From: Mobula hypostoma
Lineage: Eukaryota
Assembly: GCF_963921235.1 (NCBI RefSeq)
Contig: NC_086108.1
Span: 1,860,001-1,924,000 of the forward strand
Length of the DNA: 64,000 bases
Direction of reading: 5' to 3'
Numbering within the stretch: the stretch's first letter is position 1; each line of letters begins with the position of its first letter. Position numbers and translations under genes: made by a program. Of the stretch, positions 1,223 through 58,934 are shown one piece after another. The notes below the pieces were generated by a model that was given only the letters and a program-made list of their open reading frames with translations, was not told the DNA's origin and searched no databases.

Positions 1223-1929
1223 ATATCTACGATTCACCTACAAGACAATAGTCGGCTTTCTTCTGGAACTTTCGGTTAATGTTTTAAAAGCACATTAGGA
1301 AAGTAAACACCTGAAGAAGGGTCTCAGCCCGAAACGACGGCTATTTATTCTTTTCCACAGATGCTGTCTGACCCGCTGAGTTCCTCCAGCATTTTGTGGG
1401 TGTAGCCTCCCATTGTGAATCATACAAGATTGCTTTTACTTATTTGGAGATACAGCATGGAACAGGGCCTTCCGGTCCGATGAGCCACACTGCCCAGCAA
1501 CCCACCTATTTAACACCGGCCCAATTTACAATGACCAATTAGCCTACTAACTGCTACGTCTTTGGAATGTGGAAGGAAACCAGAGCACCAGGAGGAAACG
1601 AAGGGGTTATGGGAGAAAACATACAAACTCCTTACAGACAGTGCCATGACTGAACTCTGAACTCCAGGATGCCCCGAGCTGTAAGAGCATTGTGCTAAAA
1701 TTGTAAGTTTACACAACAGATAAACTGACAGCCAAGATTTCTGAGATGTACCTATGTAACCCAACAAAACGATTACTTTGCTCAGCCTTCAACTGGTCAC
1801 AAATTTTATGTAGACCAAGATTTCCCCAACAATCTTTTAATGCCGTGGACCCCCACCATTAACTGAGGGATCCATGGATGCCAGATTGAGAACCCCTGAT
1901 GTATATTAAAGTAGCAAGATTGATACAGT

Positions 1930-2430
1930 TTCTCCTGGCCTCCTCTACATCAATGAGACCCAACATAAATTGGGGGATTGCTTCACTGAGCAGAGAAGCA
2001 ACAAGTATTCCATCTGGGTAACCTCCAACCTGATGTCATGAATATTGATTTCTCCTTCCAATGAACAAATTCCCCTCCTCTTCCTCTATTCCCCACTATG
2101 ACCTTTCACTTCTTCTCATCAGCCTTTTACTTCCCCCGGGTCCCCACCTCCTTCTCTTCCTCCTATTGTCCACTCTCCTCTCCTATCATTCTTTCCTCTC
2201 CAGCCCATTACCTTTCCCACCCACGTGGCTTCACCTATCACCTTCAGTCTACTTGCCCTCCCCCCACTTTTTATTTTGGCATCTTCCCCCTTCCCTCTCA
2301 CTCCTGAAGAAGGGTCTCAGCCTGAAATGTTGACTGTTTGTTCCTTTCCAGATATTCTGCCTGACCTACCGAGTTCCTCCAAAATTTTGTGTGGGTTGCT
2401 CTGGATTTCCAACATCGGCATTTTGCTGTG
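1930..2430 (+). mobile_element. Penelope-like element 3' fragment (GIY-YIG remnant, pseudo-LTR, hammerhead motif)
   Basis: LLYI(N)ET..LGDCFTE and LGNLQPDVMNIDF remnants, a pyrimidine tract, then CTGAAGA-AGGGTCTCAGCCT-GAAATGTT at about 2304-2331. Confidence 0.75.
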
Positions 2431-2520
2431 ATTGTGATTTACAGTTTCTAATACATTTTCCTAATTTAATGAAAGGAGATTATTTTCCGTGCTGTGACTG
2501 AGTAGAGGGGGCAGTAAATA

Positions 2521-3078
2521 CAGGTATGCGTCACTTAATGTCCACAATACATTCTGTGAAACCGACGTTACGTGAATTGGACGTTGTGCGAACACCATAT
2601 TATATACTTAGCAAACCTATCTGGAGTACTGTAGTGTACCTGTATTGACTAAATAGCCGAGAACTTACTCTAAAACTGTATTCTGTACACTATAATACAC
2701 ACATACACGATAATTTTTTTATTTCATTTTAACCTTTTTAATTTTTTTCCTTTTTAAACTTTTATGTAAACACTTCCTTAGGCTGTATCACACACAATTT
2801 ATCAAAGATGATCAGGATCATCCACGTCCCTGTTCTCAGCTTCCTCATAATGTTCTACTGGTACAGTTTCAGGTCGAATAACCTGCGTCTGGAAGCCATG
2901 ATGCACTTTACGGTAATATTTTCAGAAGAAAATTAAACAGAGAGATAACGCTACTACACTCAAGAGACGTGCGATACACGAGATTGGTTACATCCGCCAC
3001 GTCACGTTCTCCAATCGGGACTACGGACGTATATGCGATTGGACGTTGTCGAAATGGACGTTAAGCTGCGCACACCTG
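2521..3078. mobile_element. Tigger/pogo-like non-autonomous DNA transposon
   Basis: TIRs CAGGTATGCGTCACTTAATGTCC and GGACGTTAAGCTGCGCACACCTG, flanked by TA on both sides. Confidence 0.75.
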
Positions 3079-3206
3079 TACTTGAAATCACTCAAAATGA
3101 TCACCCAAATTATAAATGTCACGTCAGCTCAATAACCGTAACTTCACCCTATTCTTTTTAGTTCCACACAGATTTTCCTGCTTTGACTGGTCAGAGTGGT
3201 TGAAGC

Positions 3207-3735
3207 AATCCACGGCCTCCTCTACTGCCAGGATGAGGCCACATTCAGGTTGGAGGAGCAACACCTTATATTCTGTCTGAGTGGCCTCCAACCTGACAGC
3301 ATGAACATTGATTTCTCTTTCTGGTAAAAAAAAAAATTCCTCCCCCTTCACCATTCCCCATTCATGTCTTACTTGCCCGTCACCTCCCCCTGGTGCTCCT
3401 CTCCTTCCCTTTCTTCCACAGTCTCCTGGCCTCTCCTATCAGATTCCCTCTTCTCCAGCCCTCTATCTCTTTCACCAATCAACTTCCCAGTTCTTTACTT
3501 CACTCCCCTTCCCCTCTCTCTGAGTTTCACCTATCACCTGCCACCTTGTACTTCTTCCTCCCCTCCCCCCACCTTCTTACTCTGACTACTCCCCACTGCC
3601 TTTCCAGTCCTGAAGAAGGGTCTCGGCCAGAAACATCCACTGTTAACTCTTTTCCGTAGATGTTGCCTGACCAGCTGAGCTCCTCCAGCATTTTGTGCGA
3701 GTTGCTTTGGATTTCCAGCATCTGCAGAATCTTGT
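3207..3735 (+). mobile_element. Penelope-like element 3' fragment with hammerhead motif
   Basis: HGLLYCQDEATFRLEEQHLIFCL..QPDSMNIDF (GIY-YIG C-terminus); CAGTC-CTGAAGA-AGGGTCTCGGCCA-GAAACATC at about 3605-3640. Confidence 0.8.
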
Positions 3736-4366
3736 ATTTGTACAGTTTAAGATTCTTAATATTGAGAACACTTCTGGGAAAGCCTTTAATGAGGGACTTT
3801 AGATAGGCTTGAATCAGTGATAAGTTACTAACCGATTGCTGCACATTAAAAAGTCTTTGAAGAAGACCTGTAGGACACTAAGGCTGCTCTACCAGATTTT
3901 TCTGGCATCCTGATAACTAATTCCCAATATAGTGCTGGATCTAATCAAGTTAGTTCAGAGCTGCTGCTGAACTAGAGGTCAGAAGAAGAATCTCATGGTA
4001 TACATACTTTGATAATGAATGTACTTTGAACTTTGAATAAGTTAAAGGTGAAAGGTAAAATATTTAAAGAGAATCTAGGGTGGAACATGTTCACTCACAG
4101 AGGGTGGTGAGAGTGTGGAACGAGCTGCCAGCAGAAGAGGTGGATGTGGGTTCAACTGCAACATTCAAGACAAGTTTGTATAAGTATATGGATGGGAGGG
4201 GAGTGGAGGGCGATGATCCGGATGCTGGGTCAATGGGACTAGGCAGAATAACAGTTCAACGCTTAATGGTATGGTTGGGAACCCCTGTTATAAAGGATCA
4301 GATACTTTTACAACTGCTTCTGACAAAAAATTTAACTGCATGACATAATTAAGGATATATTGGTAC

Positions 4367-4680
4367 GGCAGTATAGTGGTTAGCGCCAGCAATTACTGAT
4401 GAGGGTTCGATAGTTGCCATTGTCTACAAGGAGTTTCTACTTTCTCCCCATGACCACATGGGTTTCCTCTGGGTGCTCCGGTTTCCTCCCACATTCTAAA
4501 ACTGTACTGTTAGGATTAGGGATCGTGAGTTGTGGGCATGCTACGTTGGTGCCAGAAGCACGGTGACACCTGCAGACTGCCCCCAGCACGTCCTCGGACT
4601 GTGCTGGCCTTTGATGCAAAACGACACATTTTACTGTATGTTTCGATGTGTACGTGACTAATAAAGCTAATCTTTATTCC
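4367..4680 (+). mobile_element. V-SINE (HE1-like, tRNA-derived). Further copies about 1438-1697(-), 5570-5950(+), 7440-7710(-), 7918-8180(+), 10648-10912(-), 18835-19090(-), 22253-22478(+), 60670-60920(+).
   Basis: tRNA-like head with GGTTCGA/GGTTCAA B-box; central V-domain GGGTTTCCTCYGGGTGCTCCGGTTTCCTCCCACA shared by the copies. Confidence 0.75.
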
Positions 4681-5322
4681 TTACGCAACGCATACAAAAT
4701 CTAGGTCACGTTGCATTTTTCAAGTCTGTTAATTTGTACACACATATAATTGCCTTCAAGTTCAACCCTACATCCCCATTGTGAGAGGTGGAAACAGGCA
4801 AGACCAGCCATGAGGCTCTGGTGAAGCTGTATAGGCCAATCCCCTGTACAGTGGATACAATGGATTAAAGAAACATTGATCAACTCCAACTATACCATCG
4901 AGTTCAGAAGACAATGGAGACGAGAGGTCATCGATGGCCTACGCTCCACTGAATGCCAAGGGCCAAAGGTGATGAGGAAGGCACATAATATGCCTGCAAC
5001 ACACAAACTGCTGCAGGAACTCAAGTCAGGCAGCATCTGTAGAAGAGAATAAACAGTCAACATTTCAGCCAAGGCCCTTTAGCAGGGCTGGAAAGAAAGG
5101 GAGAAGAAGCAGAATAAGATGGTGAGGGAGGGGAAGGAGGATAGCTGGAAGGTGATACATGAGATCAGGTGAGGGGGAAGGTTGGTCTGGCGTGATTTTG
5201 GAGATTTTCACTGGTCTCCCCATAACGATCGCCTGTGAACACATTTTAATCAGTTGGTTTCAGTCAGCTGAAGGCGGCATGCAACTTGAATGAAAAATTC
5301 TGCTGAGGTTCTTCCAACCTAC

Positions 5323-5483
5323 CTGTCAAACTCTACGGAGTAGATGAGGATAAGGTAGCGTTTACTGTTGAGCGTCCCCGATTTGGGTGGTGGCACTTGC
5401 CTCATTCCAACTCCTGTTTTGCGGTTTCTTAGCAGCTCTAGGTCAGAGTAAGTCAGCAGATCAAGGGTCACCGATTCACTGCT
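5323..5483 (-). CDS. CCDC61: CCDC61 internal coding exon (161 nt). The next exon was not found, so the gene is truncated at the left edge.
   Basis: ttccttcag|SSESVTLDLLTYSDLELLRNRK..LNSKRYLILIYSVEFD-AG|gtagg, matching the conserved CCDC61 SESVTLDLLTY..KRYLILIYSVEFDR segment. Confidence 0.95.
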
Positions 5484-5641
5484 CTGAAGGAAGATAAAGC
5501 CCAAAATCAGTGCGAATACCATCCCAACCTGCAGCAGGCACCTGAGTTCAGATTTCACAAATTACACACTGATGCAACACCAGAGACCTGGGTTTGATCC
5601 TGACCTCTGCTGCTTTCTCCGTGGAGTTTGCACGTTCTCCA

Positions 5642-5832
5642 TATGGTTGTGTGTGTTCCCTCCCACTGCCCAAAGACATATGGGTCGATGGGTTAACGGC
5701 CTAATTCAAACTTCCCCGGGCAGCTAAAGACATGTGGGTCGATGGGTTAACTGCCCAATTTAAACTTCCCCAGGCCGTTAACCCATCGACCCGCATGTCT
5801 TTGGGCAGTGGGAGGAAGCACACACAGCCATA
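5642..5832. repeat. Local direct plus inverted duplication inside a V-SINE
   Basis: 5642-5702 is the reverse complement of 5772-5832 (5 mismatches in 61 bp); 5672-5717 is repeated directly at 5726-5771. Confidence 0.85.
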
Positions 5833-6049
5833 CTCCTAGTGTATGGGTATGTGGTAGATTGCGATGGGAGCTGACAGAACATCAGGAGAATGGCACTAAT
5901 GTAGGATCTGTGTCATTGGTTGGTAAAGGGCCGGTCTCTGTGCAGTATTTTTACAAGTGCTGTTTCCCATTTTAAAAAGGGATGGAAACAAACAAAAAGG
6001 GATAATTAGACTAACATTTATTGGTGGAGAAATAAAGATTAAATTCAGT

Positions 6050-7440
6050 AAAGAAGAAAGGAAAGTATAGGCCACCAGTTAGTCTGACCTCAGTAGTTGC
6101 CAAGATGTCAGAGTCAATTATTAAGGATGAGGTTCCAAACAGCAATTTCCTGTATGCATGGACAACAGGAGCTACTACCTTATATATATGAATTTTGTGT
6201 ACACCAAGCAAGCATCCGAAGTCAGTGTGAGGGCTAAACACAGAGAGTAAATGCACCACGAGCAATAAAGAAAGAGAGAGTAGGTTCCAGTGGAGAGAAG
6301 CTGCTGGCCTGAGAGCACATTGTGTCCTGAAGCTGCCGTTGTTCACTGAATCCACCAAGAGAGATTCAGCTGAGAGTCAGAAAAATTTGGTCATGGATAA
6401 GTTAAGTCCTCCCGCACCTATGCAGCTTACCAGCAACCTAACTGATACTGTAACTGGAAATGCTTCAAACAGCAATTCAATGGTTGCACACCCTCAGGTC
6501 GAGCTGAAGTCATTGCTGGACAGTCCCAAATAAAGATGTGTTAGTCTTTACCCAAGCTAAGTTTGTCTTTTATCAAGAACAAACATAACACGGTTTCCTT
6601 AAGGGAAATCTCCAAGCTCAAAGATGTTCAAAGCCATGACTTCTAATAAATGTGCTAGCATTTTTAACCACACTGTTTGTCTTTATTAAGAACAAACATA
6701 ACAAGGAACTCAGCAGTACATCACAAAATAGGCTGTAGTCAGCATGGTTTCCATAAGGGAAATAATTGCCTGACAAAATGTTGCAATTCTTTGAAGAAAT
6801 AACAAGCAGAATAGACAAAAAGTCAATGGATGTTGTTTACTTGGATTTTCAGAAAGCCTTTGACAAGGTGCCACACACGAGGTTGACAAACAAGATAACA
6901 GCCCATAGTATTATAGGAAAGATTCTAACATGGATAGGGCATTGGCTGATTGGCAGGAGGCAAAGTGTGGGAATAAAGGGAACTTTTTCTGGTTGACTGC
7001 CGGTGACCAGTGGTGTTCCACAGGGGTCTGTGTTGGGACTTCTTTTTACGTTATTTGTCGATGATTTAGATAACACAATTGTTGGCTTTGTGGCCAAGTT
7101 TGAAAACAACGCAAAAATAGGTGGAGGACCAGGTAGTGTTGAGGAAGCAGAGAGACTACAGAAGGACTTAGACAGATTAGGATAATGGGGAAAGAGAAGG
7201 CAGATAGTATGCAGATGGAGAAAATTCAAAAATCAGAGGTGCAAAGGGTCTTGGATTCCCTAAAGGTTAATTTGGGTGGATTTCAGGCAGAGGTTGATAG
7301 GTCCTTGATTAGTCAGGGCACAAAAGGATATAGGGAGAAGGCAGAAGAATGGGGTTGAGCGGAAACGGATTAGCCATGATGAAATGGTGAAAAAGACTCG
7401 ATAGGCTGAATGACCTAATTCTGCTCCTATGTCTTACGAT
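6050..7440 (+). mobile_element. Degenerate, interrupted CR1 LINE (RT fragments and 3' end)
   Basis: DVVYLDFQKAFDKVPH and SGVPQGSVLG motifs in ORFs 6766-6996 and 7003-7185. Confidence 0.8.
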
Positions 7441-8220
7441 TAAAGATGAGCTTTATTTGTCACATGTACATCAAATCATACAGTGAAATGCCTTGTTTTG
7501 TGTCAACGACTGATACAGTCTGAGGGTTGTGCTGGGGGCAGGCCCACAAGTGTCGGCACGCTTCCGGTGCCAACATGCTTTCTGCGACTCTTAATTGTAT
7601 GTCTTTGGACTGTGGGAAGAAACCGGAGCTACTGGGGGAAAACCCTGCTGCCACAGGGAGCACGCACAAATCCTTGCAGAGTAAAGCAATTATGCTAGCC
7701 ACCTCGCTATCGTGCCATGAGGAATATTGGAACCAATTGTTAAGGAAGTAATAGCAGCTACAAACAACCTGCTGGAAGAACACGGCAGGTTGAGCAGCGT
7801 CTGTGCAGGATGGGGGAAGGAACTGTTGATGTTTTGGTTTGAAACCCTGTATCAGGATCGAGCGTGGAGAGCTGAGGAAACCCAACTACAGGAACACTTT
7901 TGTTCAAAAATTAATCGTGGCACAGCAGCATAGCGCTTTAAAGTGCCAGCGACCCCGGTTCAATTCCTGCCACTGCCTGTAAGGAGATTGTACGTTCTCC
8001 CTGTAACCAAGTGGGTTTGCTCTGGGTGCTCTGGTTTCTTCCCACAATCCAAAGACATACCAGTTGGTAGGTTAATTGGTCAAAGTAAATTGTCCCGTGA
8101 TTAGGTTAGAGTTAAATTGGGGGTTGCTGGGTGGTGTGGCCCAGAAAGGCCTACTCTGCACTATCTCAACAAATAAATAAATGGAAAGCAGTCAGCTTCA
8201 TTAAGAGGAAATTGTGTCTA

Positions 8221-8309
8221 CAACACACAATAAATGCTGGAGGAACTCAGCAGGCCAGACAGAATTTTGTGTATGTCACTTTGGATTTTCAGCATCAGCA
8301 TTCTTGTGT
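8221..8309. mobile_element. Internally deleted fold-back Penelope-derived insertion
   Basis: Opposed pseudo-LTR ends; TSD TTGTGTCTA at 8212-8220 and 8310-8318. Confidence 0.6.
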
Positions 8310-9177
8310 TTGTGTCTAACAAATTTATTTTTAAGTTTTTTCTTTCAGAAGTTTTGACCAAAATAGAGAAGAAAACCAGCAAATGTATTGCATTTGAACT
8401 TCCAGGAAGCATTCAGTAAGTGTCCTGCAAAAAGTCATGAAATAATAGCTCAAATTGTTGGTGAAAACATTCTGACTATCAGTGGGGAGTAGTGAGCAGC
8501 GATAAGGGGCCCTTTTCAGCTTGGCAACCTGTGACGAGGTTGCCACACAAGGGGTAGCCCACAGAATCACTTATAAAACCAAAACTGTTTCAGCAGGTTA
8601 TGTACAGAAACCAAGTTTGCAAATACCACAAAAATAAATGGGAAGTTGTGAGAAGGATACAGTTCATAGACTGTATTGGTAAGTTAGATGAGTGGGTAAA
8701 AAGTTAGCAAATGGAAAGGGGAAATAGAATGTGAAATTCATTTGGGAAGAAACTACAGAATAAACTATTCTTTTGAATTTTTTCCAGTGACATGGGAGTC
8801 TAGAACTAGAGGCACAGGAAATGCAAATGAAACCGAGGTCATAGGTTTTCCCCATACATAAAGTTCAGAGTTCAAAGTCAATTTTATTATCAAAGTAATA
8901 TATATCACCATATACAACCCACAGATTCATTTTCCTGCAGGCATACTCAGCAAATCTTTAGAATAGTAACTATAACAGGATCAATGAAAGATCAACCAGA
9001 GTGCAGAAGATCACAAACTATGCAGATATAAATAAATAACAAAAACATGAAAGTGAGATAATTAGCTGTGGGAACATTTCAACGATAGGGCAAATGCAGT
9101 TATCCCTTCTATTCAAGAGCCTGATGGTTGAGGGGTAGTCACTGTTCCTGAACCTGGTGGTGCGAATCCCGAGGCTC

Positions 9178-10440
9178 CATGGCTTTGTCAAAGGCAGGTA
9201 GTGCCTTACTAGACTGATTGAATTTTTTGAGGGCGTGACTAAACACATTGATGAAGGCAGAGCAGTAGATGTAATGTATCTGGATTTTCAGCAAGGCACT
9301 TGACAAGGTACCCCATGCAAGGCTTATTGAGAAAGTAAGGAGGCATGGGATCGAAAGGGACCTTGCTTTATCGATCCAGAATTGGCTTGCCAACAGAAGG
9401 CAAAGAGTGGTTGTAGACGGGTCATATTCTGCATGAAGGTTGGTGACCAGTGGTGTGCCTCAGGGATCTGTTCTGAGACCTCTTCTCTTCGTGATTTTTA
9501 TAAATGACCTGGATAAGGAAGTGGAGGGATGGGTTAGTAAATTTGCTGATGACACAGAGGTTGGGGGTGTTGTGGACAGTGTGGAGGGCTGGCAGAGGTT
9601 ACAGCGGGACATTGATAGGATGCAAAACTGTGCTGAGAAGTGGCAGATGCAGTTCATCCCAGATAAGTGTGAGATGGTTCATTTTGGTAGGTCAAATATG
9701 ATGGCAGAATATAGTACTAATGGTAAGACTCTTGGCAGTGGGATCAGAGGGATCTTGGGATCTGAGTCCATAGGACACTCAAAGCTGCTGTGCAGGTTGA
9801 CTCTGTGGTTAAGAAGACGTACGGTGCATTGGCTTTCATCAACCAAGGGGCTGAGATCAAGAGCAGAGAGGTAATGCTACAGCTGTATAGCACCCTGATC
9901 AGACCCCACTTGGAGTACTGTGCTCAGTTCTGGTCACCTATCTACAGGAGGGATGTGGAAACTATAGAAAGAGTGCAGAGAAGATTTACAAGAATGTTGC
10001 CTGGATTAGGCAGCATGCCTTAGGTTGAGTGATCTTGGCCTTTTCTCCTTGGAGTGATGGAGGATGAGAGGTGACCTGATAGAGCTGTATAAGATGGTGA
10101 GAGGCATTGATCGTGTGGATAGTCAGAGGCTTTTTCCCAGGGCTGAAATGGCTAGCACGAGAGGGCACAGATTTAAGGTGCTTGGAAGTAGGTACAGAGG
10201 AGATGTCAAGGGTAAGTTTTTTTTATGTAGAGAGTGGTGAGTCTGTGGAATGGGCTGCTGGCGACTGTGGTGGAGGCGGATATGACAGGGTCTTTTAAGA
10301 GGCTCCTGGATGGGTACATGGAGTTTAGAAAAATAGAGGGCCTTGGGTAACCCTAGGTAATTTCTAAACTAAGTACATGTTCGGCACAGCATTGTGGGCC
10401 AAAGGGCCTGTATTGTGCTGTAGGTTTTCTATGTCTCTAT
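9178..10440 (+). mobile_element. CR1 LINE, 5'-truncated and frameshifted (same subfamily at about 18170-18445 and 21050-22250)
   Basis: GVPQGSVL..KFADD..RPHLEYCAQFWSP; tail TTTTCTATGTCTCTA. Abuts a Rex1 3' fragment at about 8862-9177(-). Confidence 0.88.
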
Positions 10441-11277
10441 TAGAGCTGCTCTTCATGGGTTTAATTAAGGCCTCAAAAACAACATGTGTGGATATTATCC
10501 TTGTGACTGAGTAAGTCTCCTCCAGCTGCCCTGGTTTCCTCCCATGTCCCACAGCTTTGCTGGTAGGTTAACCGGCCTGCATGTTATTCTTTGGGTGATC
10601 AGTGAAGTAGCAAAAAAAGGAATCAAATGGGAGTTGATGGGCACAAGTTATTTATTGAGATACAAAGCGGAATAGGCCCTTCCGGCCTTTGAAGCCACAT
10701 CCCCCAATTTTGAATCCTAGCCTAATCGCAGGACAATTTACAATACCCAATTAACCCATAAACCGGTCCGTCTTTGGACAGTGGGAGGAAACAGGAGCAC
10801 CTGGAGGAAACCCACGGGATCACAGGGAGAATGTAGCAACTCCTTACAGGCAGCAACAGGAACTGAACCTGGTCATCAGTCCCGTTATGTTTGTGCTAAC
10901 CACTACACCGTGCTGTCAAGAGTTTCAGAAACAGAGCTGAATGAAAATATTGGATGAAGTTCTATCACTCTTTCTTTGACTTTAAGTGCATTTTAGTTGA
11001 CTGTACTTCTGTGAGGAATTTTGGGCTCTTTCTCAGTAGAGCCCAGGAAAAGCAGAGCAAGAATGGGACTAGTGAAATTGCTCTGTAAGGAGCCAATATA
11101 AACGAAGTGGCTCAAATCACTTTCTGTGTAATAAGTAAGGATGTTGGCAGGACTAAAATATTTTGTTTTGTGGAAACACCGGCCAGGTGGGGTTGTTCTA
11201 TTTCGAGCAGAAGAAGCTGATATGAGATTTAATTAACATGTATTGTATCTTGGAGGGCTAAGATAAAGTGAATGGAA

Positions 11278-11815
11278 AGGTGCAGTTTTGGGCCCCATGT
11301 CTAAGAAAGGATATGCTAACATTGGAGAGGGCCGAGAGGAAGTTTATCAGAATGATAATGGGAATGAAGGGGTTAATATATGAAGAGCATTTAATGACTC
11401 TGGGTCTGTACTCACTGAAATTCAGAAAAATAAGGGGGAGGAGATCTCATTAAAGCCTACTGAACACTGAAAGACCTAGTGGATGTGGAGAGTATGTTTC
11501 CTATAGGGGGAGAGTCTAGGACCAGAGGGCACAGCCTCAGAATAGAAGGACATCCCTTTAGAAGAGAGATGAGGAGGAATTTCTTTAGCCAGAAGTGGTA
11601 AATCTGTGGAATTCATCACCACAGATGGCTGTGGAGTCCAAGTCATTAGGTATACTTATAAAGTGGAGATTGATAGGTTCTTGATTAGTCAGGACATCAA
11701 AGGTTTTGGGGAGACGGCAGGAGAATGGGGATGAGAGGGATAATAAATCAGCCACGTCAGAATGGTGGAGCAGACCCAATGGCCAAATGGGTTCATTCTG
11801 CTCCTATGTCTTATT
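11278..11815 (+). mobile_element. CR1 LINE 3' fragment
   Basis: VQFWAPCLRKDMLTLE..LGLYSL followed by a CR1-type 3' UTR. Confidence 0.8.
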
Positions 11816-11858
11816 GATTTCTTTCCCTTAAAAAGGTTAACAGTACAGATTTGCTCAT

Positions 11859-12037
11859 CAAAGTTGCTGGAGAACGCAGCAGGCCAGGCAGCATCTCTAG
11901 GAGGAGGTCCTGACAAAGGGGCTTGGCCCGAAACGTCGACTGTATCTCTTCCTATAGATGCTGCCTGGTCTGCTGCGTTCACCAGTAACTTTAATGTGTG
12001 TTGCTTGAATTTCTAGCATCTGCAGATTTCCTCATGT
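11859..12037. mobile_element. Fold-back Penelope-derived insertion with hammerhead-like motif
   Basis: Inverted pseudo-LTR arms; TSD GTACAG(A/G)TTTGCTCAT at 11843-11858 and 12038-12053; motif CTGACAA..GGCCCGAAACGTCGAC. Confidence 0.8.
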
Positions 12038-12167
12038 GTACAGGTTTGCTCATTGCATCTTTGTGTGATTTGAAAGCAAAAACACTGGTAAAAAAGTGAA
12101 ATAAAAACAGAAAATTCTAGAAACAGGAACCAGTTTAAGACAGAGAAGCAATGGATGTTTTATCTAC

Positions 12168-36965: not shown

Positions 36966-37014
36966 CTGGAGATAAAATGAGAAATTCCTGAAAACAATCA
37001 TACAAAAGGATGAT

Positions 37015-38749: not shown

Positions 38750-39156
38750 GAAGATTGAGGGGGGATCTGATTGAAACGTATAAAATCCTAAAGGGATTGG
38801 ACAGGCTAGATGCAGGAAGATTGTTCCCGATGTTGGGGAAGTCCAGAACGAGGGGCCACAGTTTGAGGATAAAGGGGAAGCCTTTTAGGACCGAGATTAG
38901 GAAAAACTTCTTCACACAGAGAGTGGTGAATCTGTGGAATTCTCTGCCACAGGAAACAGTTGAGGCCAGTTCATTGGCTATATTTAAGAGGGAGTTAGAT
39001 ATGGCCCTTGTGGCTATGGGGATCAGGGGGTTTGGAGGGAAGGCTGGGGCGGGGTTCTGAGTTGGATGATCAGCCGTGATCATAATAAATGGCGGTGCAG
39101 GCTCGAAGGGCCGAATGGCCTACTCCTGCACCTATTTTCTATGTTTCTATGTTTCT
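38750..39156 (+). mobile_element. Young CR1 3' fragment nested in a V-SINE (SINE pieces 38547-38749, 39157-39215, 40462-40473)
   Basis: Open ORF 38755-39060; (TTTCTATG)n tail; SINE sequence resumes at AAATCAGGAGTTGCTGGG. Confidence 0.9.
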
Positions 39157-39215
39157 AAATCAGGAGTTGCTGGGCGGCGTGGCTTGTTGGGCCAGAAAGG
39201 CCTACTCCTCACTGT

Positions 39216-40461: not shown

Positions 40462-41024
40462 CCAATAAATAAAGTTGGGTTTTTTGCACCTTCTCAAGTT
40501 TAATGAAATCCTTCATCCTGCAGGGCAACCAGAACTTCATGCAGTACTTGAAATGTGGCCTTACCAGTGTTTTGTACGGCTGTAACATGATCTCCCAACT
40601 CCTGCACTCACTATTCTGACCGACGAGGTCAAGTGTATCAAGTGCTGAAGGAACTCAGCAGGTCAGACCCAAAACATCTATGGAGGGGAATAAACAGCTG
40701 GAGGTACAAGCCAAGATCTTTCTCAGGACTGGAAATAAAGGGGAAAGAGAGAGAGAAGTACAAGGTGGTAGGTGGTAGGTGAAACTGGCAGAGGTGGAGG
40801 GGTAAAGTAAAGAGCTGGGAAGTCAATTGGTGAAAGAGGTAAAGGGCTGGGGAAGGGCGAGTCTGATAGAGAAGACAAAGGTTTTGGAGATGCCCCCCTT
40901 CTTTTTCACCATTCCCCATTCCTGTTTCCCTCTTTAACCTTATCTCTTTACCTGCCCATCACTTCTCTCTGGTGATGTTTTTCTTTGAACTGGTTCCATG
41001 GTTTTAGTGGCTCTCTGCAGCAAG

Positions 41025-42307: not shown

Positions 42308-44131
42308 CATAGAAACATAGAAAATAGGTGCAGGAGTAGGCCATTCGGCCCTTCGAGCCTGCACCGCCATTTACTATGATCGTGGCTGATCATCCAACTC
42401 AGAACCCCGCCCCAGCCTTCCCCCCATACCCCCCGACCCCCGTAGCCACAAGGGCCATATCTAACTCCCTCTTAAATATAGCCAATGAACTGGCCTCGAC
42501 AGTTTCCTGTGGCAGTGAATTCCACAGATTCACCACTCTCTGTGTGAAGAAGTTTTTCCTCATCTCGGTCCTAAAAGGCTTCCCCTCTATCCTCAAACTG
42601 TGACCCCTCGTTCTGGACTTCTCCAACATCGGGAACAATCTTCCTGCATCTAGCCTGTCCAATCCCTTTAGGATCTTATACGTTTCAATCAGATCCCCCC
42701 TCAATCTTCTAAATTCCAACGAGTACAAGCCCAGTTCATCCAGTCTTTCTTCATATGAAAGTCCTGCCATCCCAGGAATCAATCTGGTGAACCTTCTTTG
42801 TACTCCCTCTGTGGCAAAGATGTCTTTCCTCAGATTAGGGGACCAAAACTGCACACAATACTCCAGGTGTGGTCTCACCAAGGCCTTGTACAACTGCAGT
42901 CGTACCTCCCTGCTCCTGTACTCAAATCCTCTCGCTATAAATGCCAGCATACCATTCGCCTTTTTCACCGCCTGCTGTACCTGCATGCCCACTTTCAATG
43001 ACTGGTGTATAATGACACCCAGGTCTCGTTGCACCTCCCCTTTTCCTAATCGGCCACCATTCAGATAATAATCTGTTTTCCTATTTTTGCCACCAAAGTG
43101 GATAACTTCACATTTATCCACATTAAATTGCATCTGCCATGAATTTGCCCACTCACCCAACCTATCCAAGTCACCCCGCATCCTCTTAGCATCCTCCTCA
43201 CTGCTAACACTGCCACCCAGCTTCATGTCATCCGCAAACTTGGAGATGCTGCATTTAATTCCCTCATCCAAGTCATTAATATATATTGTAAACAACTGGG
43301 GTCCCAGCACTGAGCCTTGCGGTACCCCACTAGTCACTGCCTGCCATTCTGAAAAGGTCCCGTTTATTCCCACTCTTTGCTTCCTGTCTGCTAACCAATT
43401 CTCCACCCACACCAATACCTTACCCCCAATACCGTGTGCTTTAAGTTTGCACACTAATCTCCTGTGTGGGACCTTGTCAAAAGCCTTTTGAAAATCCAAA
43501 TATACCACATCCACTGGTTCTCCCCTATCTACTCTGCTAGTTACGTCCTCAAAAAATTCTATGAGATTCGTCAGACATGATTTTCCTTTCACAAATCCAT
43601 GCTGACTTTGTCCGATCATTTCACCGCTTTCCAAATGTGCTGTTATCACGTCCTTGATAACTGACTCCAGCAGTTTCCCCACCACCGACGTTAGGCTAAC
43701 TGGTCTATAATTCCCTGGATTCTCTCTCCCTCCTTTTTTAAAAAGTGGGGTTACATTAGCCACCCTCCAATCCTCAGGAACTAGTCCAGAATCTAATGAG
43801 TTTTGAAAAATTATCACTAATGCATCCACTATTTCTTGGGCTACTTCCTTAAGCACTCTAGGATGCAGACCATCTGGCCCTGGGGATTTATCTGCCTTCA
43901 ATCCCTTCAATTTACCTAACACCACTTCCCTACTAACATGTATTTCGCTCAGTTCCTCCATCTCACTGGACCCTCTGTCCCTTACTATTTCTGGAAGATT
44001 ATTTATGTCCTCCTTAGCGAAGACAGAACCAAAGTAATTATTCAATTGGTCTGCCATGTCCTTGCTCCCCATAATCAATTCACCTGTTTCTGTCTGTAGG
44101 GGACCTACATTTGTCTTTACCAGTCTTTTCC
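42305..44131 (-). mobile_element. Young CR1, RT half of ORF2 plus 3' end, inverted relative to its endonuclease half
   Basis: Open frame RKRLVKTNVGP..KSPGPDGLHP..NYRPVSLTS..YLDFQKAFD..GVPQGSVLGP..FADD..AGAGF*; tail at 42305. Confidence 0.95.
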
Positions 44132-44806
44132 TGCAGGTACAGCAGGCGGTGAAAAAGTCGAATGGTATGCTGGCATTTATAGCGAGAGGATTCGAGTACA
44201 GGAGTAGGGAGGTACTACTGCAGTTGTACAAGGCCTTGGTGAGACCACACCTGGAGTATTGTGTGCAGTTTTGGTCCCCTAATCTGAGGAAAGACATCCT
44301 TGCCATAGAGGGAGTACAAAGGAGGTTCACCAGATTGATTTCTGGGATGGCAGGACTTTCATATGAAGAAAGACTGGATGAACTGGGCTTGTACTCGTTG
44401 GAATTAAGAAGATTGAGGGGGGATCTGATTGAAACGTATAAGATCCTAAAGGGATTGGACAGGCTCGATGCAGGAAAATTGTTCCCGATGTTGGGGAAGT
44501 CCAGAATGAGGGGCCACAGTTTGAGGATAGAGGGGAAGCCTTTTAGGACCGAGATGAGGAAAAACTTCTTCACACAGAGAGTGGTGAATCTGTGGAATTC
44601 TCTGCCACAGGAAACAGTTGAGGCCAGCTCATTGGCTATATTTAAGAGGGAGTTAGATATGGCCCTTGTGGCTACGGGGGTCGGGGGTATGGAGGGAAGG
44701 CTGGGGCGGGGTTCTGAGTTGGATGATCAGCCATGATCATAATAAATGGCGGTGCAGGCTCGAAGGGCCGAATGGCCTACTCCTGCACCTATTTTTCTAT
44801 GTTTCT
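44132..44806 (+). mobile_element. Young CR1 3' fragment (inverted copy of 42308-42985)
   Basis: QVQQAVKK..RPHLEYCVQFWSP; tail TTTTTCTATGTTTCT. Confidence 0.93.
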
Positions 44807-47746: not shown

Positions 47747-48190
47747 CGCGCTTCTCTAACTTCTGCTAATGCCCCACCTCCCCCTCGTACCCCATCTGTT
47801 ATTTATTTTTATACACACATTCTTTCTCTCACTCTCCTTTTTCTCCCTCTGTCCCTCTGAATATACCCCTTGCCCATCCTCTGGGTTCCCCCCCACTGTC
47901 TTTCTTCCCGGACCTCCTGTCCCATGATCCTCTCGTATCCCTTTTGCCAATCACCTGTCCAGCTCTTGGCTCCATCCCTCCCCCTCCTGTCTTCTATCAT
48001 TTTGGATCTCCCCCTTCCCCTCCAACTTTCAAATCTCTTACTCACTCTTCCTTCAGTTAGTCCTGACGAAGGGTCTCGGCCCGAAACATCGACTGTACCT
48101 CTTCCTAGAGATGCTACCTGGCCTGCTGCGTTCACCAGCAACTTTGGTGTGTGTTGCTTGAATTTCCAGCATCTGCAGAATTCCTGTTGT
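47747..48190 (+). mobile_element. Young Penelope-like pseudo-LTR
   Basis: Pyrimidine-rich pseudo-LTR; its 3' part is near-identical to the arms of the fold-back insertions. Confidence 0.85.
48059..48094 (+). ncRNA. Minimal type I hammerhead ribozyme motif (Penelope type), best-preserved copy
   Basis: Stem I AGTC/GACT; core CTGACGA(+A); stem II GGGT[CTCG]GCCC; GAAA; AUC triplet (GUC in other copies). Activity not demonstrated. Confidence 0.75.
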
Positions 48191-48489
48191 TTGCTATCAA
48201 TACATTGTTGTTTGTGGGATCCTGTATTGCTCATGCTGTAACTACACTCCATTGGCCATAACACTCTTTGGGATGCTCTGATGTACCAACCTGCATGCCT
48301 GAGATACTGCTGCAAATATTTCCTTGGACCTGTACCTCGCTGTCCTTGATGATAAACTCATCTTGATGTGAATTTATTGCAAGAGGTACTACAGAAATAC
48401 AAGTTACTCTCTGTAGTATGGATAAGGAAAGGATTAAATACACCTCTTTGGTGTATGCTAAAATGTTTAACACAAAACAGGAAAACATT

Positions 48490-49399: not shown

Positions 49400-52340
49400 T
49401 TAGAGCAGCTTGTGCTTGAGCCTACTTGGGGAAAGGCTATCTTAGATTGAGTGTTGTGTAATTATCCAGATCTTATTAGGGAGCTTAATGTAAAGGAACC
49501 CTAAGGAGGCAGTGATCATAATATGATTGAATTTGTACTGCAGTTTGAGAGGGAGATGTATCAGTATCCCAATGGAATAAAGGGAATTCCTACCTGAAGG
49601 GAACTGAATGCATATTTTCCATCAGTTTTCACAGTGGAAGACATCCACAGAATACCAGACATTCAAGAGTGTCAGGGAAGTGAAGTATGTGCAGTGAAAG
49701 TTACAACTGAGAAGGTGCTCAGGAAGCTTAATGGTCTGAGTGTGGATAAATCTCCTGGACCTGATGGAATGCACCCTCAGGTTCTGAAGAAAGTAGCTGG
49801 AGAGACTGCAGAGGCATTAACAATGATCTTTCAAGAATCGATAGATTCTGGCATTGTACCGGATTACTGGAAAATTGCAAATGTTACTCCACTATTTAAG
49901 AAGGGTGGGAGGCAGCAGAAAGGAAACTATAGACCTGTTAGCCTGACATCAGTGGTTGGAAATTGATTGTTAGGGATGAGATTATGGAATACCTGGAGGC
50001 ACATTTCAAGATAGGCCAAAGCCAGCATGGTTTCATGAAAGGAAAATCCTGCCTGACAAACTTACTGAAATTTTTTGAGGAAATTACAAAGGAGATGCAA
50101 TGGATGTGGTGTTCTTGGATTTTCAGAAGGTCTTTGACATTGTGCAAAGTAAGAGCCTATGGAATTACAGGGAAGTTACTCGCATGGGTGGAGCATTGGC
50201 TTATTGGCAGAAACAGAGAGTGGGAATAAAAGGATCCTATTCTGACTGCCAGTTACCAGTGGAGTTCCACAGGGGTCGGTGTTGGGACCGCTGCTTTTTA
50301 CAATGTATGTCAATGATTTGGACTAAATTTCTGGCTAAATTTGCCATTGACATAAAGATAGGTGGAGGAGCGAGTAGTGTTGAGGAAACAGAGAGCCTGC
50401 AGAGAGACTTAGATAGTTTAGGGAAATGGGTAAAGAAGTGGCAAATGAAATACAATGTTGGAAAGTGTATGGTCATACACTTTGGTGGAAGAAGTAAACG
50501 GGCAGACTATTATTTAGATGGGGAGAGAATTCAAAATGCAGAGATGCAAAGGGACTTGGGAGTCCTTGTGCAGGATACCCTAAAGGTTAACCTCCAGGTT
50601 GAGTCGGTGGTGAAGAAGGCGCATGCAATGTTGGCGTTCATTTCTAGAGGTATAGAATATAAGAGCAGGGATGTGATGTTGAAGATTTATAAGGCACTGA
50701 TGAGACTACACTTGGAGTATTGGGTGCAGTTTTGGGCTCCTTATTTTAGAAAGGATATACTGACATTGGGGAGGGTTCAGAGAAGATTCACAAGAATGAT
50801 TCCAGGAATGAGAGGGTTACCGTATGAGGAACGTCTAGCAGCTCATGGGCTGTATTCCCTGGAGTTCAGGAGAATGAGGGGGGATCTCATAGAGACATTC
50901 CGAATGTTAAATGCCTGAACAGATTAGATATGGCAAAGTTATCTCCCATGGTAGGGAAGTCTAGGACAAGAGGGCACAACTTCAGGATTGAAGGACGTCC
51001 ATTTAGAACAGAGATGTGGAGAAAGTACTTTAGTCAGAGGGTGGTAAATCTGTGGAATTTGTTGCCACAAGTGGCTGTGGAGACCAAGTCATTGTGTGTA
51101 TTTAAGGCAGAGATAGGTTCTTGATTAGCATCAAAGAGTATGGGGAGAAGGCAAGGGAGTGGGGATGACTGGAAGAATTGGATCAGCCCATGATTGAGTG
51201 GCAGAGCAGACTCGATGAGCTGAATGGTTCCTATATCTTATGGTCTTATAGCGCTGAGGAAGCAATGTGGTTGCAGCAGAACTTAGACAGATTGGAAGAA
51301 TGGGCAAAAAAAGTGGCATATGGAATGAGGTGTTGGGAAATGTATGATTATGCATTTTGGTAAAAGGAACAATAGTGCGCACTATTATCTGAATGGGAGC
51401 AGGTTCAAACATCAGAAAGACTTAGGAGTCCTCATTGCAAGACTCCCAGAAGATTAATTTACAGGTTGAGTCTGTGGTAAAGAAGGCAAATGCAATGTTG
51501 ACATTTATTTCAAGGGGAACAGAACATAAAAGCAAGGAGATAATGCTGAGTTTTTATAAGACGCTAGTCAGGCTGCACTTGGAGTATGTCAACAGTTTTG
51601 GGTTCCATATCTCAGAAAGGATGTGTTCTCATTGGAGAGAGTCCAGAGGAGGTTCATGAGGATTATTCTGGGAATGAAGGGGTTAACATAAGAACGCAAA
51701 CACGAGGAAATCTTCAGATGCTGGAAATTCAAGCAACACACGCAAAATGCTGGTGGGACGCAGCAGGCCAGGCAGCATCTATAGGAAAAAGTACAATCAA
51801 CATTTTGGGCCGAGACCCTTCATCAGGATCTTCCTATAGATGCTGCCTGGCCTGCTGCGTTCACCAGCATTTTGTGTGTGTTGGTTAACATATGAGGAGC
51901 ATTTGGCAGCTTTGGACCTGTACTCACTGGAATTTAGAAGAACGTGGGGGGAATCTCATTGAGACCTACAAAATGTTGAAAGGACTAGACAGGGTGGATT
52001 TGGAAAGGATGTTTCCTATGGCAGGGGTATCCAGAACTAGAGGGCACAGCCTCAAAAGTGAGGGGCGACCTTTATGAACAGAGATAAGGAGGAATTTTTT
52101 AGCCAGAGAGATGTGAATATGTGGAATGTTCTGCCACAGACTGCGGTTGAGGCCAAGCCCGTGGGTATATTTAAGGCAGAAGTTGATCATTTCCTGATTG
52201 GTCAGGGCATGAAAGGATATGGCGAGAAGGCAGGTGTATGGATTTGAGTGGGATCCGGGATCAGTCATGATGGAATGGTGGAGCAGACCCAATGGTCTGA
52301 ATGGCCTGATTCTGCTCCTATGTCTCATTGTCCTTATGTT
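49400..52340 (+). mobile_element. Two tandem older CR1 LINE fragments (junction about 51250)
   Basis: DKSPGPDGMHP, NYRPVSLTS, SQHGFMKGKSCLTNL, HLEYWVQFWAP; many frameshifts. Confidence 0.85.
51691..51882. mobile_element. Fold-back Penelope-derived insertion inside a CR1
   Basis: TSD GGTTAACATA at 51681-51690 and 51883-51892 splits the CR1 GMKGLTYEE codons; inverted arms. Confidence 0.85.
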
Positions 52341-53739: not shown

Positions 53740-54270
53740 CGGCAGAAGCGAAATTTCTCAGTGGCCAAACATTTCAATCCTGATTCCCATTCCCATTCCA
53801 AAATGTCAGTCCATGGCCTCCTCTTGTGCCACAATGAGGCCGCCTTTAAGGTGAAGGAGCAACACCTTATATTCCATCTAGGTAGCTTCCAACCTGATGG
53901 CATGAATATCAATTCCTCCTTCCAGTTCAAAAAAACTACCCTCCCCTCCCCTTCTATTCCCCACTGGCCTCCTACCTCTTCTCACCTGCCTCTCACCTCC
54001 CTCCAGTGCCCCTCCTTCCCTTTGTCCCGTGGTCCACTCTCCTCTCCTATCAGATTCCTTCGTCTCCATCCCTGGCTTCACCCATCACCTTCCAGCTATC
54101 CTCCTTCACCTCTCCCCACCTTTTCATTCTGGCATCTTCCCCTTTCCTTTCTAGTTCTAATGAAAGGTCTTGGCCCAAAATACAGCTGTTTATTTATTTC
54201 CATAGATGTTTGACCTGCTGAGTTGTGTGTGTTGTCCTGGATAGCCAGCATTTGCAGACTTTCTGGTGTT
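53740..54270 (+). mobile_element. Penelope-like element 3' fragment
   Basis: VAKHFNPDSHSHSKMSVHGLL..EQHLIFHLGSFQPDGMN (GIY-YIG C-terminus) plus pseudo-LTR. Confidence 0.85.
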
Positions 54271-54592
54271 TGTAATTTCATGAAAAGTTTAAAGATATTA
54301 GGGAGAATTTGGTTGGAGAGAAACTATTTCCCATTGGTTAGAGAGTCTGGAAACAGAGAACAGTGACTAAATATTTGAAGCAGGATTGCTTGAATGAAAT
54401 TTGAAATTATGTATTTATGGAGTTAAGTCACAGATTAGTCAAGATCTCAATGACTGTCAAGACAAAAGAGACAGCAGTTGTTGGAATCTAGAGCATCAAT
54501 CAATCAATCAAGCAGCATCTGTGGAAGGAAAGGAATTGTCAACGTTTTGCGTTTGATCCTGATGCTGTTGGACCTGCTGAGTTTCTTTGGTA

Positions 54593-54815
54593 AACACGAG
54601 GAAATCTGCAGATGCTGGAATTCCAAGCAACACACATCAAAATTGCTGGTGAATGCAGCAGGTCAGGCAGCATCTATAGGAAGAGGTACAGTCGACGTTT
54701 CGGGCCGAGATCACTCGTCCTGACGAAGGGTCTCGGTCCGAAACGCCAACTGTACCTCTTCCTATAGATGCTGCCTGACCTGCTGCGTTCACCAGCAACT
54801 TTGATGTGTGTGGCT
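54593..54815. mobile_element. Fold-back Penelope-derived insertion with hammerhead motif
   Basis: Perfect 15-bp TSD TGAGTTTCTTTGGTA at 54578-54592 and 54816-54830; inverted arms of about 90 bp; CTGACGA..GAAA at about 54720-54745. Confidence 0.9.
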
Positions 54816-54939
54816 TGAGTTTCTTTGGTAGATTGTTTGTTACAACAGGTTGGAAGTCCTTATTGTTTATTATCAAGTGGATGATAGGGATGCAGACCTA
54901 ACTGTGGGAAGACTAGGTTCTGATGAGACCTCATATGGA

Positions 54940-56195: not shown

Positions 56196-56606
56196 AAACG
56201 GTGGGGGAGTCCAGGACCAGAGGCAGAGCCCCAGAATACAAGGGCATCCCTTTAGAAAGGAGATGAGCAGGAATTTCAGCTGTGGAGGAGCAAGTCATTG
56301 AGTATATTTAAAGCAGAGGTTGATAAGTTCTTGATTTATAAGGGTGTGGAAATTTACAGGGAGAAGGCAGGACAGTGGGATTGAGAGAGATAATAAATCA
56401 GCCGTGATGGAATGGCGGAGCAGACTCGATGGGCCACATAGCCGAATAATTCTGCTCCATGCCTTGTGTTGTTATGGACTCTCCCTGACTTTGCCTGTTT
56501 ATGTGTTTCCTTTTCAAATATTTTTAAAAGTTAAGTGGATTCTATTTCTGACACACTTCTATAATCGGTGCCCTAGCAACCTTATAAATAAAATAAATTC
56601 CTCTTA

Positions 56607-56831
56607 AGCAACACACATAAAAGTTGCTGGTGAATGCGGCAGGCCAGGCAGCATCTCTAGGAAGAGGTCCAGTCGACGTTTCAGGCCGAGACCCTTCGTC
56701 CTGGGTCTCGGCCTGAAACGTCGACTGCACCTCTTCCTAGAGATGCTGCCTGGCCTGCTGCGTTCACCAGCAACTTTTATGTGTGTTGCTTGAAATTCCA
56801 GCATCTGCAGATTTCCTTGTGGTTGCACTTT
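56607..56831. mobile_element. Fold-back Penelope-derived insertion (near-perfect hairpin)
   Basis: Perfect 13-bp TSD TAAATTCCTCTTA at 56594-56606 and 56832-56844; arms about 56607-56693 and 56703-56791. Confidence 0.92.
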
Positions 56832-57504
56832 TAAATTCCTCTTAGCTCTGTTTCGATGCTAATCTGAACTTTCTCAGTTTCTTGTTACTGCTCCATTAGC
56901 AGTGGGAGCAATTCTTCCCATTTATCAGGATCGCTTCAAACACCTTTGACAGGTCTCTGAAATGCCTGTGTTCCCGTAAGGATAACCTGCAGTTCTTTAC
57001 ATTTCACTCCATTGTTAAGATAATGGAAATCTTCAAAATATTCACATAAAAATTTCTTTGTAGGCTTTGAAAAGGTGAAAGGTGAAATGTTTGCAGAAGT
57101 TCACAAACTAGGGTTCACGGACCCCTTGTTTACTGGTGTTGCTCCACAGCATAAAAAGGGTTGGGAACCCCTGGATTAAGGAGAAAATGAGAGGAAACTC
57201 GGAGGATGGTGGGAGTGTGGGATGAGCTGTCAGTGTAACTGGTGGATGTGATTTCAATTTCACCATTTGAGGGAGGTTTGGACAAGTACATGGATGGAAG
57301 GGCTATGGAGGGCTATGGTCCTGCTGCAGGTCGATGGGACCGGACAATTGAAATAGTTCAGCACAGACTGGATGGGCCAAAGAGTCTGTTTCTGCACTGT
57401 AGTTTTCTACGACTCTATAACATCCTTACTAATCAAGGACTTATGAACCTCTGCTTTAAATGTACCCAATGACAGATTGTTTTAGCTGACAGGTCAGTCC
57501 AGAA

Positions 57505-57583
57505 CAGGAGTTCCCAGCCTGGGGTCCATGGTTCCTTGATTAATGGTATTGGTCCATGGCATAGAAAAGGTTGGGAACCCCTG
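57505..57583. mobile_element. hAT/Charlie-like MITE (related copies about 1818-1897, 52367-52436, 57095-57173)
   Basis: TIRs CAGGAGTTCCCA..TGGGAACCCCTG; 8-bp TSD GTCCAGAA/GTCTAGAA, fitting the Charlie NTCTAGAN preference. Confidence 0.8.
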
Positions 57584-58934
57584 GTCTAGAACCTGAGTTG
57601 TCTTTCAAAAGTTTACCTTATCCAGTAGAGAAATCCCATCAGTTCCATTCCTTCACTCTTTCCCCCTAGCCCAGAAACCTATTTTCTATCTGATTCCCTC
57701 TTGAAAACAAAGTAACGCACCTATTCCATTTCTGATTGCACCCCTACGTGGCAATCTCAGGAATACCAGGGGAGATAAGAGACTGCAGATCCTGGAATCT
57801 TGGAGCACACACAACCTCTCCACTCTCAGGCCTGATGCAGTGAGGCTTGGCCCAAAATGTCAACAATTTCGCACTCCCACCGATGCTCCTCGGCCGCTGA
57901 GTCCTTCCAGCAGATTACGTGTTTCTCAGGAATAATGTTATTCAAACTACCACTGGGGCACATTTCTTTCCCGCTGAGTCAGAATTATGGATCCAGTTCC
58001 CTTCTAGATATCTGTGGTGAAAATTACCACGGTGACTAATGGGTGGAGGCCTGCACTGTTCAAAGGTTATCTTTACCATAGACCATTGACTGTCTTCTTT
58101 AGACACCGTGCTGCCACTTAACTTCACGGATCAAACATCCTGGGCTAATTCTTCACCCAACAACACAGAAAGTAATAGATAATGTGGTCCAGACTGTGGC
58201 CATTATTGAGAGCTTTCTACAGTCAAATTGCCTGCCAGATTTCCTACACTACAGCAGTGACCACACAAAAATACTTAATTAGCTGAAACATACCTAGAGA
58301 CATTCTGAAAGAGATGCCAAGAGCACCATAGAAATATATATCTTTATCTTATCAAAGGTATGGTCCGTGTGCAGGTCAGTGGGACTAGGCAGAAAATGGT
58401 TCGGCACAGCCAAGAAGGGCCTAAAGACCTGTTTCTGTGCTGTAGTTTCTATGGTTTCTATGATATCTGTCTTTTTATTATTGACGATAATTCCAGACAG
58501 GGTAAATGCAAGCAGGCTTTTTCCACTGAGGTTGGGTGAGATGACAACTAGATGTCATGGGTTAAGGGTGAAAGGTGAAAAGGAAAAGTTTAGGGGGAAC
58601 ATGAGGGAAAACTTTTGCTCAGAGGGTTGTGAGAGAGTGGAACAAGCTGCCAGTGCAAGTGGTGCCTGCGAGCTTATTTTCAATGTTTAAGAGAAGTTTA
58701 GATAGGTGTTTGGATGGTAGGGCTATGGTCCTGGTGCAGGTGGATGGGAGTCGGCAGTTTAAATGATTTGGTATGGACTAGATGGGCTGAAAGGTCTGTT
58801 TCTGTGCTGTACTTTTCTATGACTCTATTGTAGAATTCTGGTTGGAATTAATTTTGGTTGCAGATTTACTAGGTTTCTCGTCGCTGACATTGTAGTTTTA
58901 TTAGATGGCTCTGGGTCATCAAAAATAAAAATGC

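Follow-up and report, generated by a model that had tools for sequence, protein, structure and literature searches.

The minimal hammerhead ribozymes (min-HHRs) of metazoan Penelope-like elements (PLEs) combine a CUGANGA/GAAA core with an extra base between positions 9 and 10.1, a G10.1-C11.1 pair, a short stem I and a palindromic helix III (15.2-16.2) that lacks loop III. In the accessible text of Cervera & De la Pena (2014, PMC4209133) they occur mostly as single motifs on truncated PLEs, with opposite-strand pairs 100-700 bp apart, and are reported from Xena, Poseidon and Neptune elements of fishes. The same traits are found in a 64-kb stretch of the genome of the ray Mobula hypostoma (contig NC_086108.1, positions 1,860,001-1,924,000; hereafter ‘the window’, to which all counts below apply, rather than to the whole genome). 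This is repeat-rich vertebrate DNA (GC 45.6%) with many fragments of long interspersed elements (LINEs), and a 38-base motif repeated along it is, to judge from its sequence, the known minimal hammerhead signature on truncated PLE ends, both real and abundant. The copies are very likely dead-on-arrival 3' ends from several subfamilies of a Neptune-type PLE in this batoid genome; their architecture, truncation, inversion and decay are observed directly, and the mechanism is taken from published PLE work.

Eight seed copies were used to build an nhmmer profile, which returned 31 hits at E≤1 (some of them confined to the tail), compared with a single hit (E 0.31) in the reversed window. Merging these hits with a longer profile and an alignment resolved 23 hammerhead-bearing arms at 21 loci (~1 per 3 kb), besides scraps holding only the tail or only the endonuclease; the PLE family occupies 6425 bp, ~10% of the window. 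A first-pass annotation of this DNA had described a dispersed family of 15-18 copies at about one per 4 kb; the dispersed family stands, and the count is slightly higher. The motif is present at 8 of the 8 coordinates named there, which mark either C3 or the start of stem I (positions below are numbered from hammerhead C3 = +1). The consensus given there, with ≤3 mismatches allowed, matches the window twice, at 48059 (1 mismatch) and 3606 (3 mismatches), and not once in 100 shuffles. The same annotation held that ordinary annotation would miss the motif and proposed an Rfam check; when run on the window, Rfam gave 6 hits at E≤5, none of them to a hammerhead family, and the motif is indeed missed. 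An Rfam MIR530 match (39103-39271), which scores under the gathering threshold and sits between inverted LINE ends, was rejected as spurious.

The majority sequence has a 5-bp stem I and the CUGANGA box, after which one additional A leads into a stem II of 4 bp, with a G10.1-C11.1 closing pair and the loop CUCG; GAAA, an ACGU without a loop and C17 follow. The core is complete (C3 U4 G5 A6 N7 G8 A9 / G12 A13 A14 A15.1 / U16.1 H17), and the loopless palindromic helix III (15.2-16.2), ACGU in the majority, has a predicted self-duplex energy of -1.7 kcal/mol. All parts named in the first-pass annotation, from stem I and the CUGANGA and GAAA core to the 4-bp stem II, the loopless ACGU and the GUC site, are present. 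Pairing was tested on 17 rows, consisting of the 15 window arms without large indels and two metagenome contigs introduced below (L001 and L002). The stems pair in 77% of cells (stem I, 74%; stem II, 87%), and every slid control is lower. Two-sided changes affect 6 of the 11 stem pairs and the covariation score is 0.312, among rows that are related and of which 2 of 17 were selected by pattern; 2 of 500 shuffles reach this score, and because 82 of 500 reach the two-sided pair count, stem covariation within the window appears modest and only suggestive.

Units are ordered as endonuclease C-terminus, a C/T-rich terminal repeat of 235-300 nt, the minimal hammerhead and a tail of 60-100 nt; a young copy at 47751-48194 (+) runs from the end of the open reading frame (ORF) through terminal repeat and hammerhead to the tail. 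The 3' ends are bimodal, lying at about +82 to +104 and +118 to +137 from C3, in groups 35-40 nt apart that correspond to the PLE tail. Copies are solo and variably 5'-truncated. The ‘pseudo-long terminal repeat’ setting proposed earlier is right in that the sequence is PLE terminal repeat, and wrong in that these are solo truncated 3' ends rather than repeats flanking an ORF. Of 22 listed runs, 4 were covered (four organisms; 30 to 11,527 aligned contigs per run), and contigs of all four contain the young subfamily and end it at 48185-48194; these data are assembled contigs from runs none of which is recorded as RNA, and contigs cannot reveal RNA ends. At 48096-48115, and at equivalent sites in most copies, a pyrimidine tract with YAG lies ~20 nt past the cleavage site and resembles a splice acceptor. 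An ATG following this tract was considered as an ORF start and rejected as unproven: one subfamily stops after 16 codons, and the frame differs between subfamilies.

In five copies, C3 is preceded at a distance of 235-300 nt by the C-terminus of a GIY-YIG endonuclease (1937-2058, +; 3205-3321, +; 30907-31092, -, with one stop, independent E-value [iE] 5e-9 and E 2e-21; 37010-37123, +; 53740-53922, +, the longest, iE 7e-13), and one orphan remnant (32501-32642, -) is without a hammerhead. The remnants preserve 25-60 aa at the C-terminus of this domain, and the YIG half is reached only in the 2304 copy, which shows it together with an internal deletion and the C-terminus in a tblastn search with the homologues P0123 and P0138. 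The earlier statement that several copies lie just downstream of GIY-YIG remnants holds for these five, with the qualification that ‘just downstream’ is the distance given above and that most remnants are such short C-terminal pieces. Pfam gave no GIY-YIG match on two window remnants, homologues of the remnants match Pfam GIY-YIG under its cut-off, and a word-based protein search with a 60-aa remnant found no match. A profile of the remnants retrieved 306 proteins at E≤0.001; ten of its top hits are named from Hypanus, Hemitrygon, Narcine, Leucoraja, Rhinoraja and Rhincodon, Mobula also occurs among the cluster members, and the nearest of the named relatives are proteins of stingrays and skates that have a Neptune-type linker. 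P0123, P0124 and P0138 have a CxxC linker and a C-C-H-H endonuclease pattern, fit a reverse transcriptase-endonuclease (RT-EN) profile (E 1e-58 to 1e-139) and share up to 66% identity over 62 aa with window remnants. At iE <0.2 this profile matches the window only at positions 834-897 of 898, and all copies are therefore 5'-truncated 3' ends; RT and EN in one ORF are seen in the homologues P0124 and L002.

A hammerhead pattern scan found 0 viral contigs and 2 metagenome contigs (L001 and L002), neither from this family. In L002, a min-HHR at 10-37 stands directly before an intact 961-aa RT+GIY-YIG ORF (17-2899), the last residues of which match a window remnant (E 2e-5). The CX2-5CxxC linker, given as a trait of Neptune and Nematis in the accessible text of Craig et al. 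(2021, PMC8557442), is present in 114 of 120 L002 relatives. We infer from these homologies that the carrier is a Neptune-type PLE in a ray, and the earlier identification of a PLE minimal type I hammerhead agrees with the anatomy, with the place 3' of the PLE endonuclease C-terminus and with the L002 ORF beside the same motif. The named proteins nearest to the L002 ORF are mostly from molluscs. In L001, a broken PLE ORF is preceded by an inverted min-HHR (548-575, -), whose stem I differs from that of the window family by three compensatory pairs.

Four ray or skate gene models (P0121, P0125, P0140 and P0153; ATP synthase c, neuromedin-U receptor, RECQ5 and NYAP1-like) have a piece of this PLE endonuclease spliced in, and these pieces are probably annotation artefacts or exonisation. 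A family that fills a tenth of the window, has a ribozyme motif missed by Rfam and leaves fragments inside several ray and skate gene models is a point for annotation. No mention of Penelope was found in batoid genome papers within a partial literature; Repbase/Dfam, subscription papers or supplements may list the family.

None of the 23 arms is identical to the consensus. All core bases are kept in 4 of 23, each with a stem defect: the 2304 copy (2299-2336, +) has a stem I mismatch, U15.2 and U17; the 3610 copy (3605-3642, +) is changed at 11.1, 16.2 and 1.1; the 23870 copy (23865-23897, +) has the 3' strand of stem I deleted; and the 48063 copy (48058-48095, +), the best-preserved hammerhead, has G16.2>A as its sole change. 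Among the other arms, that at 1306-1343 (+) belongs to an element starting at 2.1 and has lost U16.1, 30577-30614 (-) has lost U4 and G12, 37414-37451 (+) has lost U4, 32954-32990 (-) has the cleavage-site base deleted, 35845-35865 (-) has stem II deleted, and 18529-18558 (-) is a 3' half whose 5' core is missing. Arms at 5054-5090 (-), 54152-54188 (+) and, in a divergent subfamily, 7823-7860 (-) are decayed, and one at 40695-40731 (-) heavily so, with an inverted upstream piece at 40890-40976. Across 18 of the 23 arms (five divergent-family arms were omitted, and 5' parts without homology were trimmed), departures from the majority affect 45/142 (32%) CpG cells vs 43/468 (9%) non-CpG cells (Fisher p=8e-10), and 39 of the 45 changed CpG cells are C>T or G>A, bearing out the decay at CpG sites that had been proposed. 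The four CpGs in the motif overlap G12, C17, 15.2/16.2 and loop II. Some CpG changes may be subfamily variants rather than decay, because C11.1>T is found at half or more of the contig depth.

The first-pass annotation had put forward 48059-48094 as a test copy. The motif is there and is the best preserved, but its palindromic stem III is lost: ACAUC stands in place of ACGUC (G predominates at this site in the contigs of each of the four runs), and with G16.2>A the predicted self-duplex of helix III goes from -1.7 to +3.4 kcal/mol. Because this change breaks stem III, the 48059 copy would serve badly as a test substrate. Where same-strand copies are close neighbours (1311/2304/3610, 54157/54720 and 54570/54721), at least one partner is damaged, and the window holds no same-strand pair of intact copies able to dimerise. 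The copies in this window are almost certainly inactive; no arm is an intact ribozyme, and the genome is therefore seeded here with relics.

In the explanation we favour, the motif in an active master element would be a weak ribozyme that cuts after GUC, as published PLE work suggests, and cutting would require either a second copy, with the palindromic ACGU as an intermolecular helix III, or the element’s own protein. This protein would start reverse transcription within the tail, at two sites, and mostly stop early. Such early stops would scatter uncut hammerhead copies across the genome, where they would drift neutrally as by-products, with no cutting for the host.

Several observations weigh against this explanation. 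The majority sequence prefers a rod fold, which pairs G5-G8 with 15.2-17 and hides the cleavage site (-12.7 vs -10.5 kcal/mol for the hammerhead), and its best dimer fold is not a double hammerhead (-33.7 vs -19.9), in energies that leave out tertiary contacts and protein help. Published min-HHR dimers show low activity in the accessible text of PMC4209133. Among nine Xenopus dimers, 8 were uncut and 1 was active. In vitro, insertion of the anole PLE did not need the ribozyme, according to the accessible part of Frangieh et al. (2024, PMC11167929). The RT-EN profile search found neither an RT remnant nor a full element in the window, and the clade assignment therefore rests on homologues. Finally, the non-CpG core is kept somewhat better than the stems (changed in 11/163 vs 28/224 cells, significance not computed), which could reflect subfamily differences or slight constraint.

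The preference for the rod would also suit a motif that lacks cleavage even in the master element, be it a hammerhead fossil or a structural signal such as a protein-binding rod or an RT landmark. This would agree with the motif being uncut in the copies, with the finding that no plain copy begins at the cleavage site (+29), and with the anole study (PMC11167929), which in its accessible part has no RNA reads that start or end at the cleavage site. It is at odds with the anole homologue, which according to the same text cleaves once protein is added, and with what the majority sequence and two unrelated PLE contigs have retained, namely all core nucleotides, the ACGU palindrome and the additional base behind A9 (the contigs were found by a core-fixing pattern). 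We regard a non-cleaving motif as rather unlikely and retain a weak ribozyme of the master element as the better account.

Four young loci are head-to-head units of 180-225 bp and similar build, at 11843-12053 (hammerhead 11905-11942, +, G8 lost), 51681-51895 (hammerhead 51794-51831, -, G12 lost), 54578-54832 (arms 54715-54752, +, and 54689-54726, -, both core-damaged) and 56594-56844 (both arms without part of the 5' core). Their target duplications are 16, 13, 17 (1 mismatch) and 13 bp, respectively, with ≤1 mismatch throughout; duplications of at least 13 bp occur in 4/4 of these units, 0/16 other loci and 18/300 random pairs. In each unit one 3' end is long and the other short, giving a one-sided tail of 30-40 bp. 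Older or smaller inverted units are present at 31134-31277 (old, divergent subfamily; arm 31219-31256, +), 57783-57921 (old divergent copy with an inverted tail piece; arm 57827-57867, +), 54451-54577 (old divergent copy, probably head-to-head; arm ~54538-54575, -) and 8212-8318 (tail-only, 9-bp duplication, without a hammerhead). A case of nesting is seen at 54451-54832, where a young head-to-head unit lies within the tail of the older PLE copy.

The similar build, similar length and clean duplications of the four young units could suggest a self-propagating non-autonomous family, resembling miniature inverted-repeat transposable elements or retrozymes. We consider this very improbable: the head-to-head junctions are all different and each unit pairs a long with a short 3' end, there are no tandem units and no head-to-head copy with an intact core, and the head-to-head form is known for ordinary PLE insertions. 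Ordinary insertions of the PLE itself remain the preferred reading of these units.

The main arm of the four young units starts at -2, -1, -2 and -2 from C3 (stem I 2.3 or 2.2). A start 2-3 nt before the core is thus found in 4/4 of these units vs 1/13 plain copies (Fisher p=0.002, post hoc). The minor arms start at about +35, +38, +5 and +3. This count omits 7855, for which there is no subfamily reference, and the older or tail-only inverted units at 31224 (~-9), 57832 (~-15), 8221 (~+47) and 54570 (unplaced); a non-duplicating inversion at 40726 lies ~150 nt upstream. The start rule is not universal, because the older units and the 40726 inversion deviate from it. Among 5 listed opposite-strand contig joints with both sides in the young copy, 3 have one side at -2 to +6 of C3, too few to serve as support, and loose contig 5' ends at 48059-48060 are confounded with upstream sequence of another subfamily. 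On balance, we think that the hotspot of main-arm starts at the 5' strand of stem I is somewhat more likely real than not.

The cause of such a hotspot is less certain. Because cis stem I would already be open once the 1.x strand had been copied, a stall at 2.x could mean trans pairing, and the 5' strand of stem I might then be a site where RT stalls and turns back, the footprint of a trans-paired stem I and thus of a dimeric hammerhead in the transposition complex. This is quite unlikely at present. A plainer reading is a fold-back on the micro-palindrome GTC-CT-GAC, on which two head-to-head units fold back exactly, or on a rod-like hairpin, without ribozyme function. A fold-back of cDNA at stem I was considered and is unsupported by DNA folding of the 48063 copy. 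If the dimer reading were true, the ray-genome copies in their many thousands would document, legibly, the dimerisation of the ribozyme in vivo; with a very high-copy family that carries target duplications, statistics on RT stop sites relative to the ribozyme can be gathered on any ray assembly.

The host gene in the window encodes a gap junction delta-2-type (Cx36-type) connexin on the (-) strand (coding exon 1, 59978-59908; exon 2, 36965-36113; best PDB match GJD2, E 4e-132). Of the 23 arms, 11 are located in its 22.9-kb intron (36966-59907), and three intronic head-to-head units are predicted to form sense-strand hairpins of -107 to -184 kcal/mol. Co-option of some copies to regulate the connexin pre-mRNA, through cleavage or hairpins, is nevertheless highly improbable: core lesions affect 5/5 sense-strand arms, the best copy (48063) is antisense to the gene, and the intron shows no clear enrichment (11 arms in 23 kb vs 12 in 41 kb, with both arms of two units counted). 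Nothing indicates co-option by the connexin gene. A PLE copy at 37001-37560, with a possible 10-bp duplication, lies near the expected branch point, only ~40-45 nt away from the 3' splice site of the connexin gene.

That an unrelated repeat looks like a hammerhead by chance, as the Rfam result and the modest covariation might suggest, is hardly credible given a consensus with all 11 fixed core positions and the stems, located where PLEs carry the motif, and given the motif-ORF linkage in L002 and the endonuclease remnants upstream.

Other repeats in the window include young CR1-type LINE copies at 38750-39986 and 40976-44795, which are inverted and have arms of up to 556 nt that are 95-97% complementary; the CR1-type region has an endonuclease ORF (40976-42379) and an RT ORF (42399-44726) on opposite strands. 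A long compound minisatellite with periods of 25, 34 and 9 nt extends from 13947 to about 16000. A 21-nt tandem repeat (26021-26440 and 28747-28935) with an open His/Thr/Asp-rich frame flanks a non-LTR RT fragment (27369-28187; LTR, long terminal repeat), and a SINE-like (short interspersed element) dispersed repeat (D20) of ~100 nt or more has five copies, at 4404, 7957, 13920, 22248 and 38599.

Compared with the min-HHRs of PMC4209133, the window family has a stem II of 4 bp, vs 7-8 bp in Schistosoma, a density of ~1 per 3 kb with decayed copies included, and a cartilaginous fish as host, a group unmentioned in the accessible text. The PLE-derived type I hammerheads of non-LTR retrozymes (bioRxiv 10.64898/2026.07.22.740005) are of the same kind and, in the part of that preprint available, are reported in the sole chondrichthyan sampled; they form tandem units with complete hammerheads, whereas the window copies are dispersed or inverted and none is complete. 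The Poseidon element of Anolis (PMC11167929, accessible text) likewise has a hammerhead near the repeat-ORF junction and a tail defined by two internal RT start sites. It belongs to another clade, and its start codon lies inside the ribozyme, whereas the post-motif ATG here is not frame-conserved between subfamilies.

Neptune PLEs, as described in the accessible text of PMC8557442, share the C-terminal GIY-YIG domain, the CX2-5CxxC linker (which falls beyond the window remnants and is seen in the nearest homologues), 5' truncation, an adjacent inverted copy and a one-sided tail of 30-40 bp; the element in the window is known from its 3' ends alone. Penelope of Adineta vaga (PMC3846280) has head-to-head inverted terminal repeats with junction palindromes read as self-priming. 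Its duplications are 8-10 bp vs 13-17 bp here, where the units are without an ORF; hammerheads are unmentioned in the accessible part of that paper, whereas the junction in the window lies at hammerhead stem I. In a literature covered only partially, we found no paper that links inversion junctions to hammerheads. The head-to-head form itself is already described for PLEs, and the position of the junction relative to the ribozyme is, against the literature covered, new and a small lead.

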